A DNA stretch of 64,000 nucleotides from Eledone cirrhosa (Eukaryota): contig OZ024746.1 of the NCBI GenBank assembly GCA_964016885.1, forward strand, positions 8,804,001 through 8,868,000, in the 5' to 3' direction. A program made the translations under genes and the position numbers. Position 1 is the first letter of the stretch; each line of letters starts with the position of its first letter. Under the pieces are notes generated by a model. That model searched no databases, was not told the DNA's origin, and was given only the letters and a program-made list of their open reading frames with translations. Below, piece after piece: positions 3,144 to 43,156 of this stretch.

Positions 3144-3850
3144 TGACGTTATAGTCGCATATATGTTATAGAATGCCGTTAGCTTCTTGCTAAAACAATC
3201 TCTATACCTGTCATTTATATTTATACTCGGATTCTTTTCCTAGAGTGCTTAAACTATCTGTGACTAATCCCGGTTTTTTTCATAAAAACTGTGATAATTA
3301 TTGCTATTTTGCTGAACTCCTTTGTAGAGTTTTTTTTTCAGAATGTATTTGACTGCTATTTCTTGTAAATAAACATTCACTTCCATCCTGACGTCACTAG
3401 CACCGTTTTTTCCTCATGTGCTTTTTCATAAATACACATGAAGGCGAACTAGCCAGTTTTAGAATTCCCTTTTCGGATTATATTACTGTGAGAGCCCTGG
3501 TTTTCTGTTGAGCTCTGCTGATGAATGAAATCCAACCGTGACCATCTCCACTGAAAGTTTTCATGAAATAGTCTTTTAAGACTATACAGAGCATTTGATG
3601 TTATTCCAAATTGAAGGATAAGTGTTTCAAACTTTATTTTATCATGAGTTAAAGGTCTATAGATTTTTCCCTGGATTTCACTAAATTCTGTGGATGAATT
3701 TATATCCTGATTCTCTTTTGAGATGAGTTTGAGTTATTTTTCCTAAATCTTTCGTTAACTACTTTTCCCATCTTGACGTTATAGTCGCATATATGTTATA
3801 GAATGCCGTTAGCTTCTTGCTAAAACAATCTCTATACCTCTCATTTATAT
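3144..3850 (+). mobile_element. (TA)n-flanked HHR-bearing element with 77-bp terminal direct repeats (period 630)
   Basis: 3144-3220 equals 3774-3850 with 1 mismatch; internal HHR present; a homologous copy lies at 39090-39520 on the minus strand. Confidence 0.8.
3512..3592 (+). ncRNA. Type I hammerhead ribozyme, intact core
   Basis: gctctg CTGATGA atgaaa[28 nt]tttcat GAA Atagtct ttta agactaT A|cagagc. Stem I 6 bp, stem II 6 bp, stem III 7 bp, AUA cleavage triplet. Confidence 0.88.
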
Positions 3851-6217
3851 ATATATATATATATATATATATATATATTTCGTTTCTGAATTTGTTTAGT
3901 AAGATTCTTTATCTGAAAACGTGTGTTGAAACCGATATTGTGTATATATATGTGTGTATATATATATGTGTGTATATATATGTATATATATATATGTATA
4001 TATATATATATATATATATATATATATATATATATATATATATATATATATATATATATATATATATATATATATATATATATATATATAAATAGAAAAC
4101 TTAAATATAACATTCCTGAGATCTCCTCAATATAAACGTAATTACAATTATCGGGATACAAAACCGTTGAGATAAACATCAGAAGACTCACAACCATGTA
4201 AGAAAATGGCTCTGTATACGATGAATTAAAGTTTGAATTGATTCAAAGACATGGAAATAGCAGTAGTTGCCTGCTTAGGTAAAAGTATTAATTCCTTGTT
4301 CACAGTTACATGCATAAATGCATAAATGTCCATAATATGGTGACCTGGTTAAATTTTAAAACATTTTGTATCTCCTGTCGTTATTTTCCGGATTCGTAAT
4401 TTCACAGGCTACGTTATTGGTTGTGGAAGAAATAAAGAACAGATAATGTCGTAACGATACAGCAATCCTAACACTTCTATCGGAAATGAACCAAAGCAAA
4501 ACTGTATATAATTTTCAGCCTTGGTGACATTTTTATACCTGTTGATTTGTTATCATGTTTGTATACAGGGTAAAGCTACGCTCGTTTGTAATTCTTCAAA
4601 GACGTTTCTCCAAGTAAACAACCATGTAATTTAAGTTTAGGGGTTTTCCTTCAACTAACCTTAAATAAATAAAACACATTCTAGATATAAGTGTTGGGAG
4701 TTCTATGTAATAAAACCGTTTGAGAATTCACTTTAGACTAAAATTCTCGTTTCTGCCACTGGGCACTAGTTTACAAAGAGACATTGCTACGAAACCAATA
4801 TTGGATTCGACTAATGCGAGCTGATACTCATTCCAAAGATATTTCCTAAGTTTGATTAACCATTGAAGATTAAACGAATTAGAAATACGTATCTGTTAAA
4901 GAACAGCTATGGAATAAGTTCACAACACATCTAAATATATTTCTAGGATAAAAGTACATAAAAACAATAAAGAATTTAATATTTTGTGAAATGTATAAAA
5001 AATAAAGTATTGGAAAGGACTAAAATTGCTATAAATGAGAGGAAAAGAGGGAAATGGCAAGGATTATTAGGGAACGAAAAAAGGAGGAAGGGGAGACGGT
5101 GACAGAATCTACACCTAAGTCAGTTTTAGTTTCTGTTCAAGATGCTAGAGCAGACAGGTCGTAATTTTGGTGTTATGTATAATTGTCTTTGTTTGGTTGC
5201 CTCTCATTCAATCAAATATGGACTAACATATTTAAATAGACATTAAAATATTCATAAATATAAAATGTTTCGAGTTAATCTTATATAACCAAAGTAATAA
5301 AATTTACATTATACATATCAACGAGAAATGTAATGTTAAAAGCCATTGTCACTAACCAGGAATAAATTAAGAAATCTATGATAAATAGAAAAGAAGCAGA
5401 GTTTGAAATACAAGAGAATTAAGGAAAGAAGGATAAACGATTCTTATTTCTATCGGTGTTTGTATCGTTAATATGTTTCGTTTCTTTTATAAGGATTATA
5501 AGTTGTAGAGGAAGAAGAATCTGGCAGGTTAATTTCCTAGAAGGATATAAAATATTAGGTTTGTATTAAATTCATTTCGTTCTTTTATTTGTGCCATTGT
5601 GTGTGTGTGTATGTAAGTGTGTGTGTATGTATGTATGTGTATGTACGTGTGTATGTGTGTATGTGTGTGTGTATGTGTGTCTGTATATGTGTGTGTGCGT
5701 GTGTTAGTATGCTGTATATGTGGCTGTACATACGTGCTCACATAAGTGCACGTGTGTCAATGTATGTTTGCTATACATTCAAACGACGGAAAATTAAAGA
5801 TAATTTGCAGCGAAGTTGTGTTTATAATGAAGCTGGAAGCAATATATAACCTAAATTGACTTTTCACGAACGAACGTTGAACAACAAAAGAGACACGCAT
5901 AAGATATTCACATATATATATTTCTGTGCCCAAATACTTATAAAAATACTCACCGACACGTGCAGTTCCATATATATATATATATATATATATATATATA
6001 TATATATATATATATGCAAAAGTTCTATTTAAATTGTTGGGATACAACAAGCAAATATACGGGGTCGATAAAATAAAGTACCAGTAATACACTGGGTAAT
6101 TGCTGGCCTTGTGCCTAATGTAGAAATAATTATTATAACTGATATAAAGCACTCGACAAATATTTGGAGTAGATATACAATATTAATAAATGGAAACTAT
6201 ATTTATAAAACCATATT

Positions 6218-6282
6218 TATTTCATTATATATATTTCAAGGATACCAAGTTAAATCATGGCATGCCTTCATCAGACAAAATA
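6218..6282 (-). ncRNA. Type I hammerhead ribozyme (left arm of F1 hairpin)
   Basis: tattttgt CTGATGA aggcatgcca..tggtatcctt GAAA tatata TA|atgaaata, with a palindromic minimal stem III. Confidence 0.75.
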
Positions 6283-40329: not shown

Positions 40330-40878
40330 AGAATGTATAATTTATAATAAACGAAGCCATATTTTACATTACTCCGGAGTAAACAAACCAACCTGTGTAC
40401 TTCGTCGAGTGCTTCAATCTGCATATTGAGATGTTGGTAAACAACCAACATATACTCTCTCTCTCTCTCTCTCTCTCTCTCTCTCTCTCTCTCTCTCTCT
40501 CTCTCTCTCTCTCTCTCTATATATATATATATATATATATATATATATATATATATATATATATATATATATATATATATTATATATATATATATATATA
40601 CTCTTTCACGTCGAGGTTTATATTTTTCTTGGTGCAATTCTTCCCGCTTATATATATATACATATATATATATATATACATATATATATATATATACATA
40701 TATATATATGTATATATATATATATATATATATATATACATATATATATATGTATATATATATATATATATATATACATATATATATGTATATATATATA
40801 TATACATATATATATATATATATACATATATATATATATACATATACATATATATACATATATATATATATATATATA

Positions 40879-41080
40879 TTGGTAAACGGAATAGAAAATG
40901 CTAACAAATTGTTCACAGTTGAAAAATGGTTTAATTAGGAATAAAAGAGTATTAGTGATTGTATGGGTTAGTATTCAGTTGTGGTTTTAAGTTTTTAAGC
41001 TTTTACCGGTTGCGCATTTCTAAATGCTTTTCAAAAATAATTTTGAGATAGAGTGTCCGTGCTGTTTGCTCTGATCTGAT
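40879..41080. repeat. Dispersed (TA)n-adjacent repeat, second copy at 61907-62096
   Basis: The two segments align over about 190 bp; the minus strand has GAAAtgcgca, which may be a truncated pLTR. Confidence 0.75.
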
Positions 41081-43156
41081 TACAATATATTAATAAATGG
41101 AAACTATCTTTATAAAACCATATTTATTTTATTATATATATTTCAAGGGCAACCAAGGCAAATTATGGTGCGCTTTCATCAGATAAAATACAGAATTTTT
41201 TATAAATAAATATTGACATACCCGGAAAAAAAAGACAACCTTAACGGTTGGAGCTTCCTGGATAGTGCAGTACATTTATTGAGGGTGATACAAAGTTATG
41301 AGTGAGTATGCAAATGAGTGTCCGAAAGGTTGAAAAGATAACGGTTTATTTAAATTAAACTGTTGGAAGAAGATGATATGTAAGGGAGAGCGAAAAAAAT
41401 AGAAAAAAGAAAAAAAGAAAAAAGAAAAAAAAGGAGAAAGATAGAAGAGGAAAGAAAGAACGATTATATATATTGATAATGAAAATAGAGTGCATGAAGA
41501 GATAAATATAAACAGCCTAAGTATATCTAAAAGGGAGAAGAAATGATAATAATGTGAAAGAATAATATTTATAATGCAGGATTCATTACGTTTTGATTAT
41601 AATACTTATAATGATAGGTTGAAAAATTAGTTTAAAATTAAATTAAAATTAAAAATTAGAAATCAAAATTAAAGATTAAAATTTACCTTAATATTAAAGA
41701 TTTAATATAATAATTTAATATTAATAATTAGTTTAAATATTAAGGATTATAAATTATTTAAATAAATATATAGTATTTTACATTAGAGCAAATCTAGTAT
41801 AGTTTATTTTATTAAAAGTTGTAAGTCAAAATTTAAACATCCAAATAATTCTAAATTTATGAAAAATTTACGAGAGTTTACAAAAGAATAACCACTTAGT
41901 TATATTATAAAAACAGTAAGGAAGTGTAAAGGAAGTTAGAAGTGATTTTTTAAGAACTCAGATGACTCTAAGGATTAAATGTTATAAAGTTAAACAGTTA
42001 AACATTTTTTATCTTAAGAATATAATTAAAACATGAACCATGTGTTATTTCATACGAAGTCATAAATTTACTTGCTATAAAGTTAAAACATTAACATTAA
42101 AATCAAAACATTAAAAAAATTTATCTTAAGAATATATTTAAAGCATAAACCATAGGTTATTCCACATATATATAAAAAACCTATATATAAAAATCATATG
42201 TTTTTCCACATATATATAAACATTTGGATATATATATTAAAAACGTTTGAAGATATAAAAAATATAAAAATATAAAAATATTGGAAGTTATGAAAATAAT
42301 GGTTTTCCTATATCATTCAAAGGAATTTTCAAAAGATTTTTCATAAAACCTTCCGTAAGTTTTTCAATAAAAATTTTTTTCTTAAAGGAGTTTCAAGCAG
42401 TCATATAAAATTTTTTTTATAATCTATCGATAGGTGTAATAATTTTAAGTATATAGTATATATATGTGAAGTAAAGATATGAATCATATATAGATATAGA
42501 AGACATTATGTAAAAGAGATAAGTCATATATTACATTTTATATATATATTTAAAAGTTGAATTTAAACGATGTTTGCAGGACTGAATAAATTATTTCGCA
42601 AATTAATAGAGTTCTTACTTTTTAGTATAAAGAATATTTCTTCAACACAAAGAGAACAATTTTGGGATAAAGCAGTGTATGAAGGAGCTTTGGAAATAAT
42701 TTTCCAAAGTAAAGAATAGTTAATATTCTTGGATTTCAGGTCCGATAATAAGTTAGATAGAAAAGTTGAAGATTTTTTACCAATATTCGTAAAGGTACAT
42801 TTATGGTTATTAAAACGAGATATGAAGTCAGTGGAAGTAGAGCCGACATAGTTAAAGGAGTTTTCATTTGTTTTGACATTACAATTGTATACTATCTCCA
42901 CTATCCAGGAAGCTCCAACCGTTAAGGTAGTCTTTTTTCCGGGTATGTCAATATTTATTTATAAAACAAATCTGTATTTTATCTGATGAAAGCGCACCAT
43001 AATTTGCCTTGGTTGCCCTTGAAATATGTATAATAAAATAAATATGGTTTTATAAATATAGTTTCTATTTATTAATATATTGTATATTTACTCCACTAAA
43101 TTGTTGAGTGCTTTTTATCAGTTATAACAAATTTTAAATTAAATATAACCTCTGCA
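41081..43156 (-). mobile_element. 5'-truncated Penelope-like retroelement (Naiad-type) with inverted pseudo-LTRs
   Basis: ~186-bp inverted arms at 41081-41267 and 42899-43084, each with an HHR (41125-41190 on -, 42975-43040 on +; 8-bp stem I tattttat/ataaaata). Tail 43085-43156. Internal GIY-YIG remnant and AT-rich UTR. Confidence 0.85.
42550..42901 (-). pseudogene. GIY-YIG endonuclease domain of a Penelope-like element
   Basis: IVY..YVGST..F..RF.NHK..F..ST.LS...LK...W.I....SY......CSLC.EE...N.R, and CKHR after a frameshift. The CxxC...CxH extension is typical of Naiad-type endonucleases as I recall. Confidence 0.88.

Follow-up and report, generated by a model that had tools for sequence, protein, structure and literature searches.

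The stretch of Eledone cirrhosa DNA studied here (GenBank assembly GCA_964016885.1, contig OZ024746.1, positions 8,804,001 to 8,868,000 of the forward strand; hereafter the window, all 64,000 nt of it, numbered from 1) carries many sequences resembling type I hammerhead ribozymes among (TA)n tracts, and raises the questions of whether these are genuine ribozyme folds, what has spread them and whether they act on the host. This animal DNA is rich in AT and densely populated by microsatellites and by repeats resembling short interspersed elements (SINEs). Our study indicates, with considerable confidence, that the motifs are type I hammerhead folds, for which self-cleavage is predicted, lying at the 3′ ends of several families of Penelope-like elements (PLEs) with Hydra-clade motifs and in two non-coding units likely copied by the same kind of enzyme.

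All 12 sites that an earlier note on this sequence had listed as hammerheads with intact cores were found to carry the complete core (CUGANGA, GAAA and a UH triplet) in its proper places, with the type I arrangement C3 U4 G5 A6 N7 G8 A9 / G12 A13 A14 A15 / U16 H17 in each. Six lie on the forward strand (3512, 6390, 8408, 15314, 40277 and 42975) and six on the reverse (6218, 7458, 8008, 18364, 39345 and 41125). A strict type I descriptor returned 6 matches in the window, compared to a mean of 0.03 and a maximum of 1 in 100 locally dinucleotide-shuffled windows, and a relaxed descriptor, under which the foot of stem II may hold a mismatch or an additional base, returned 9 compared to none in 12 shuffles; this comparison had been proposed in the earlier note and came out in its favour. 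Closure of all three stems, with the ends in stem I, was obtained for 6 of the 12 sites under the strict rules and for 9 under the relaxed ones, and the three that failed the latter (6390, 8008 and 18364) have a damaged stem II, which is intact in the commonest relatives of 8008 and 18364. At position 10.1/11.1, U.U is present in 39345 and 8408 and C.A in 15314. By sequence the window motifs form about nine groups, and by kinship there are fewer (6218/6390 and 41125/42975 are 82 % alike, and 8408 and 6763 are 72 % alike). The accompanying list of degenerate copies needed more revision: 21677 is indeed decayed, but 7236 proved to be a complete hammerhead with a U3-A8 core; 6763 and 39906 are half copies, yet full copies of their family carry a variant core; and 6624 is a mutated copy, yet 16 of the 17 copies tallied for its family retain an intact core.

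The perfectly inverted arms found between runs of TA, together with an AT-rich satellite that yielded many false U3-A8 matches, might suggest that the short fold-backs arose as miniature DNA transposons or as accidental hairpins, and that AT-rich DNA matches the core by chance. This explanation is already largely refuted and we regard it as extremely improbable, as the shuffle controls fell far below the observed motif counts, the arms are unequal with junctions that differ between copies, and the same sequences terminate elements encoding reverse transcriptase (RT) and a GIY-YIG endonuclease.

The claim that stem sequences differ while pairing is kept was borne out by an alignment of 20 motifs (6 from the window and 14 from other loci) of the families designated B and G here, to which the count is confined: 16 of the 19 pairs have changed on both sides and 94.5 % of cells are paired, a level above all 500 shuffles and all slid controls. 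In the same alignment, columns 21/51, the fourth pair of stem II, hold a pyrimidine–pyrimidine mismatch in most motifs of B, G and L190 type, with an invariant C in column 21 and flanking pairs that covary; this mismatch is a possible tertiary contact. When folding was predicted for monomers, all stems formed in 3512 alone among the 12 sites, while the other 11 had a low predicted probability for stem II or stem III. Stem III is 1–3 bp long and self-complementary in most motifs, which would require a dimer or the help of a protein to cut, and such low stem probabilities are expected of dimer-type hammerhead motifs (PMC4209133).

What these folds belong to can be seen in family B2, represented in the window by a 5′-truncated Hydra-type PLE (41081..43140, reverse strand). 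It has a short pseudo-long terminal repeat (pLTR; 41081–41270, reverse, hammerhead 41125–41190) and an inverted long pLTR (42896–43140, forward, hammerhead 42975–43040, with a 47-nt tail), between which lie a GIY-YIG endonuclease remnant (42509..42895, reverse) and a 1.3-kb 3′ untranslated region (UTR). The remnant gave a weak GIY-YIG match in Pfam (E 0.0075), and is 78 % identical to residues 615–743 of the open reading frame (ORF) at locus L063. L063 is a whole element, consisting of a pLTR with hammerhead, a 743-residue RT/GIY-YIG frame, a 1.3-kb UTR and a second pLTR, and it carries RWR, DKT, CxCx5C, CxxC and CxH; the motifs listed for the Hydra clade, in the part of the source drawn on here, are RW[K/R], DKT, CxCx5C, CxxC and CxH (PMC8557442). 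The pLTR hammerhead, (TA)n insertion, inverted copy and tail are likewise all present as in Hydra-clade PLEs. When judged by eye, the catalytic RT motif carries a mutation in L063 but is preserved in L065 and L212, and no CCHH motif was found in the L063 frame. The B2 repeat gave 2,085 first-look candidates, of which 40 were scored at 93–98 % (the window itself excepted), and its protein gave 51,444, of which 150 were scored at 80–94 %; Argonauta is the source of the element's only named protein relative. The B2 element is adjoined by another repeat flanked by (TA)n (40880–41078 and 61908–62095, 84 % alike).

Coding sequence was tied to three further families. At L216, repeats of C′ (the 39906/6763 subfamily) flank a full Hydra-type ORF on both sides; L212 and L214 share one ORF family (91 % over 2 kb) that terminates in the K motif; and B3 has a GIY-YIG sequence in the sense orientation about 0.8–0.9 kb upstream in 5 of 20 loci (L285–287, L292 and L294). 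B2, B3, C′ and K are shown by these linkages to be pLTRs of RT/GIY-YIG PLEs with Hydra-clade motifs. The earlier note had linked the motifs to PLEs and proposed many ribozyme-bearing, (TA)n-associated families; this reading as Penelope-type retroelements is supported, and RT and GIY-YIG genes now tie four of the families to that source.

The remaining window copies of these families, and of the related B1, are mostly arms and fold-backs. B1 is a head-to-head insertion (6113..6502) with a long reverse arm (hammerhead 6218–6282, with tail) and a short forward arm (hammerhead 6390–6454, weak stem II). The B3 pLTR (7428..7710, reverse) contains hammerhead 7457–7527 and a short inverted arm at 7661–7710; at locus L302 (G000:C610:6000-15000), B3 repeats recur every ~820 nt as a UTR-plus-pLTR tandem lacking an ORF. 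C′ is present as two forward-strand fold-backs, 6701..6886 (hammerhead 3′ half, tail, then (TA)n) and 39840..40025 (a perfect hairpin with hammerhead 3′ half, tail and (TA)n). This subfamily is repeatedly truncated and folded back within the 3′ strand of stem II (L004, L105, L129, L151, L153, L198, L203 and others), with junctions that vary by locus, and full copies are rare. K is found as a fold-back (18014..18183) whose core has been destroyed, and as a 3′ half (30166..30231, forward).

Two further families, A and D, are probably of another kind. A is represented by a unit at 3145..3845 (forward), a 630-nt monomer plus a 71-nt terminal repeat within (TA)n, with a hammerhead at 3512..3592 (forward; stems of 6, 6 and 7 bp, predicted cut after 3586, AUA), and by an older 5′-truncated copy (39092..39519, reverse, 93 % to 3418–3845) with hammerhead 39345–39425 and U.U at 10.1/11.1. 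Copies of A are 98–100 % alike, with a tandem period of 628–630 nt, arrays of up to ~7.4 units, variable 5′ ends and a single fixed 3′ end before (TA)n; no inverted arm was seen in them, and units are mostly closer within an array than between arrays, with exceptions. The D unit (14849..15459, forward) is a 555-nt monomer plus a 56-nt terminal repeat, with hammerhead 15314–15393 (forward, predicted cut after 15389), and begins ~13 nt past the predicted cut site of the previous unit; its tandem period is 553–564 nt, and locus L303 holds at least 9 units. Insertions of both families have (TA)n on both flanks, neither ends in poly(A), and comparison with PLE proteins gave no RT or GIY-YIG match within either unit. 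As tandem non-coding units with a type I hammerhead they have the defining structure of metazoan non-LTR (long terminal repeat) retrozymes, and A and D would thus appear to be young units of retrozyme type, a nature that the earlier note missed. An upstream promoter of small nuclear RNA type was considered for A, D and B3 and rejected, as U1/U2 upstream profiles scored no higher than shuffles (U6-type promoters were not tried). The U1 and U2 genes themselves are tandem, with periods of 2.7 kb and 2.2 kb, respectively, and common upstream blocks near −57 and −30 (G000:C3:307349256-307453739; C2:180973544-180995099; C1128).

The other families were seen in the window as ends, a fold-back or a single hammerhead: C (8380..8598, forward; hammerhead 8408–8497, tail, (TA)n, with the U.U at 10.1/11.1 found family-wide), E (18351..18450, reverse; minimal hammerhead 18364–18399, stem II broken in this copy), F (7860..8135, reverse; hammerhead ~8008–8050, with an extra base after A9 and one stem II pair broken), G (40277..40450, forward; hammerhead 40277–40329 and tail), H (a fold-back at 6506..6691, reverse, with A6 changed to G in this copy's core) and J (7236..7323, forward). 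In addition, a hammerhead decayed in core and stem III lies at 21677..21745 (forward), no copy of which was found in a 590-kb genome sample, and a fold-back at 26772..26844 holds a hammerhead 3′ half alone. A tail motif with a small hairpin just past the short end is common to C, C′, B2 and H (8523, 6815, 39954, 43091 and, on the reverse strand, 6576), and is a candidate binding or start signal for RT. Neighbouring ORF fragments of C (8408 subfamily), E and F, each at a single locus, were judged incidental, and G was dropped as the pLTR of the L212/L214 ORF because that ORF terminates in the K motif.

Families for which no ORF link was established (A, D, E, F, G, H and J) could instead be SINE-like or satellite hammerhead repeats, moved by long interspersed elements (LINEs) or amplified as DNA. 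LINE fragments are present in the window, and the large D array at L303 has a higher-order pattern typical of satellite turnover. However, D, G, H and F have head-to-head pairs and (TA)n ends like those of the proven pLTRs, long and short ends were seen in D, G and H, H has its tail motif in common with C, C′ and B2, and A and D lack the poly(A) end. We therefore consider this origin rather unlikely.

Several points weigh against the interpretation of the motifs as ribozyme ends of Hydra-type PLEs and of units copied by the same machinery. Rfam, which the earlier note had also proposed as a check, gave no hammerhead match in the window at gathering score (only a tRNA-like one) and none among the 150 of 215 matches listed at E≤1; below gathering score, the matches were microRNAs driven by microsatellites, besides one tRNA-like SINE head. 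Pfam likewise gave no match for the full L063 frame, for four other window frames or for two full PLE frames. The L063 unit, at ~3.9 kb, exceeds the <3 kb stated for Hydra, although that length is given as a tendency and not a rule in the portion of PMC8557442 considered, and the presumed placement in the Hydra clade was made by motifs and BLAST. E, F, H and J (18364, 8008, 6624 and 7236) yielded no ORF of their own, and G (40277) adjoins an ORF family that terminates in another motif, that of K. The rows of the covariation alignment are related and were partly picked by a descriptor that demands pairing, so that the result is to be read as support and not as a probability. The likely copying of A and D by a PLE-type enzyme is deduced from the structure of their ends alone, and array units are not always uniform (L382 and L303), so that one circular template would not account for every array. 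Self-cleavage by the hammerheads, finally, is a prediction from the DNA sequence.

The insertion ends nevertheless suggest how such copies would arise. The B2 repeats have two alternative ends, separated by 47 nt, and 10 of 12 head-to-head pairs, at loci mostly chosen for the long arm, unite a long and a short arm, an arm of the other two being too short to class. D has two ends ~124 nt apart, and a query favouring neither end gave 19 long-plus-short pairs among 21 (two junctions may be one event); the remaining two had a broken-off arm, and no long-plus-long or short-plus-short pair was among the 21. Most D junctions unite arms with different start positions, which fits two separately primed complementary DNAs (cDNAs) better than one fold-back. 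Under our model, the RT/GIY-YIG protein would nick a (TA)n tract and reverse transcription would set out from a fixed internal position in the RNA, lying downstream of the ribozyme; priming would often occur on both DNA strands, with a separate start site used for each, and the joining of two 5′-truncated cDNAs head to head would leave the fold-backs and half hammerheads. The hammerhead of A is predicted to be competent as a monomer, but A copies continue through the cut site, which makes a re-ligated circle the likely template, whereas D arms often start just past the cut, so part of the D templates were likely cleaved linear RNAs.

The latter suggestion draws on a pile-up of D 5′ starts, 9 of 55 arms beginning in the 15-nt interval that opens at the predicted cut, two of these exactly at it (binomial P 1.6e-5, or 8 of 54 and P 1e-4 with two similar junctions merged), in a bin that was set post hoc for arms counted by hand, with duplicates and edge-cut arms excluded. 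Stalling of RT on the folded ribozyme, or AT-rich microhomology to the target site, could also account for the pile-up. A similar pile-up was sought in A and rejected, with only 1 of 22 5′ ends at the cut. Furthermore, the Poseidon element PAc showed no strand difference in start site and no reads terminating at the cut in vitro, in the portion of the study drawn on here (PMC11167929).

Variant cores bear on whether cutting matters for spread at all. The U3-A8 core of J is the previously published C3-G8 swap, and full C′ copies (39906/6763) carry A8, which is combined with U3 in five of the eight tallied and with C3 in three; control cores with swapped pairs (A3-U8 and G3-C8) were at shuffle level. 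No genome-wide estimate is given for U3-A8 because 35 of the 44 matches in the sample came from one AT-rich satellite (L193, G000:C7:30000001-30010000), which was set aside; it has a ~280-nt period and mimics U3-A8 cores. In K (18060), which gave 1,501 first-look candidates, U4 has become A in 17 of the 20 full copies at the loci examined, and this core had 6 matches per 590 kb compared to 0–1 in shuffles, or ~30,000 copies if the sample is typical. Changes at U4 strongly lower hammerhead activity in mutagenesis, and a weakened ribozyme is therefore the likelier reading of K. The U4A change was not found by literature search or in the text, figure aside, of section 8 of PMC3088659.

The abundance of K despite this change, the 11 of 12 window motifs not predicted to fold as monomers and the lack of effect of ribozyme mutants on insertion in vitro, in the part of PMC11167929 considered, could mean that the majority of the motifs have lost catalysis and persist as relics, retained through descent or as RNA folds, with cutting irrelevant to spread. 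On the other hand, cores are kept while stems covary between subfamilies, C3-G8 has become U3-A8 as a paired swap in two families, and D arms begin at the predicted cut site; we regard general catalytic death as possible, though on the doubtful side.

Genome-wide abundance was estimated from 59 evenly spaced 10-kb stretches of the large contigs (590 kb of a 3.0-Gb genome), with counts that refer to arms rather than elements and a descriptor unlike published ones. The strict descriptor found 24 motifs (0–1 in shuffles), or ~1.2×10^5 genome-wide, and a wider one found 53 (0–3 in shuffles; bootstrap 37–71) in 31 of the 59 stretches, or about 1.9–3.6×10^5. Counted with a single descriptor, the 64-kb window holds 9 motifs and the 590-kb sample 53, so the window lies near the genome mean and is no hot spot. 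For comparison, in the parts of these sources drawn on, axolotl is credited with 126,247 hammerheads (PMC7229834) in 28 Gb (10.64898/2026.07.22.740005), and a coral with >6,000 in 16 families (PMC7229834). A bolder reading, which we advance only tentatively, is that this is among the densest hammerhead populations known (~90 per Mb, ~20 times axolotl), that the insertion scars record start sites fixed for each strand, that D 5′ ends come from ribozyme cleavage in the germ line, and that the U4A core of K is either a working variant or proof that cutting is dispensable.

At ~90 motifs per Mb many must lie in introns, and 3512 is predicted to fold alone, which lends some plausibility to the suggestion in the earlier note that intronic motifs could cut host pre-mRNA. 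However, no host exon was recognized among the window's open frames (by eye, with five scanned against Pfam), and with the motifs split 6:6 between strands the idea is unsupported. Every traced motif lies within a dispersed repeat family, 11 of the 12 are not predicted to fold as monomers, and Xenopus retrozymes are reported, in the portion of the source considered, to be under-represented in introns (10.64898/2026.07.22.740005). An action on the host transcript is thus improbable.

The feature is real, and two classes already in the literature account for it. Earlier work has described PLE pLTRs that carry hammerheads, genomes with many such families, inverted pairs, tails and insertion into (TA)n (PMC4209133, PMC8557442); in Octopus bimaculoides, Hydra-1_Obim is listed as targeting (TA)n and bearing a canonical hammerhead (Craig et al. 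2021, PMC8557442). As far as the parts of these and the following papers drawn on here extend, our elements resemble Hydra PLEs in their C-terminal GIY-YIG, RW[K/R], DKT, CxCx5C, CxxC and CxH motifs, in placing a hammerhead close to the 3′ end, in targeting (TA)n and in having partial tandems, inverted 5′-truncated copies and a tail at a single end. They differ in their families and stems, in the ~3.9-kb unit with its 1.3-kb 3′ UTR, in tails of 47 nt (B2) and ~124 nt (D) compared to 30–40 nt, and in their very high copy number and variant cores. With published hammerheads they share a short palindromic stem III, many families per genome, opposite-strand pairs 100–700 bp apart, the extra base after A9 and U3-A8, whereas published counts are 2,000–9,000 per genome compared to 10^5 or more here (by a different descriptor), B and G both retain the Y.Y mismatch at the fourth stem II pair, and the U4-to-A change of K does not appear in the text consulted. 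The metazoan retrozymes without LTRs (Cervera and de la Peña 2020, PMC7229834) are similarly non-coding tandems with a single type I hammerhead per unit, low GC content and co-occurrence with PLEs, and those of axolotl also have U.U at the foot of stem II. At 630 and 555 nt, A and D exceed the 170–400 nt of invertebrate retrozymes (PMC7229834) but are within the 51–972 bp range of Li, Clavereau and Pollet 2026 (10.64898/2026.07.22.740005); D differs from them in its PLE-type two-armed ends, and A and D are known here from DNA rather than circles. Poseidon PAc of Anolis (Frangieh et al. 2024, PMC11167929) likewise has two internal RT start sites bounding a tail, AT-rich targets and both target strands cut and extended, and our long/short pairing is read as an extension of these findings. 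PAc is nevertheless of another clade, without a strand difference in vitro where classifiable insertions here are always long plus short, and without RNA ends at the cut where D has a genomic 5′-end pile-up. What is new here is the families, their density, the long tail, the strictness with which long arms pair with short ones, the accumulation of 5′ ends at the cut site and the K family with its U4A core.

Among other features of the window, a SINE-like repeat of ~190 nt is abundant (2805–2994 and ~25 further places, including 9343, 13346, 14289, 21468, 27597, 32148 and 49272; copies 76–96 % alike). A second SINE family with a tRNA-like head lies at 11850–12100, 22563–22805, 54292–54531 and 61209–61447, of which the copy at 11861–11918 attains the Rfam tRNA gathering score. 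A frame of 134 residues at 46360–46764 (forward), with no match in Pfam, resembles the C-terminal restriction-like endonuclease of an R4/Dong-type LINE, and frames at 56–391 (reverse) and 51811–52044 (forward) resemble the C terminus of RTE-type LINE proteins. Minisatellites were found at 16484–16935 (50 nt), 25110–25378 (12 nt), 27143–27459 (79 nt) and 55117–56139 (28 nt), the 12-nt and 79-nt arrays being perfect, and another repeat forms an inverted pair (29790–30645 and 43839–44415, 96 % over 294 nt).

In summary, the discovery is modest in kind, as both classes were already published. The description of these elements as unannotated holds for the ribozymes alone: Penelope elements are listed in two cephalopod repeat papers, in which the words hammerhead and ribozyme are absent. 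No cephalopod hammerhead survey was found by literature search, in which Craig et al. 2021 alone bears on the subject (bioRxiv supplements aside), and given the density of hammerheads seen here, cephalopod repeat libraries probably contain many such ends unlabelled. In the portions of the literature drawn on, the formation of tandem and inverted PLE ends and the role of the hammerhead are posed as open (PMC8557442, PMC11167929), as is the enzyme that copies animal retrozymes (10.64898/2026.07.22.740005). The young, high-copy families with fixed ends (A, D and B2) yield exact predictions of RT start sites and cut sites, and, if the germ-line cleavage reading is true, the D insertions would supply evidence of cutting in vivo, which is missing from PLE studies.

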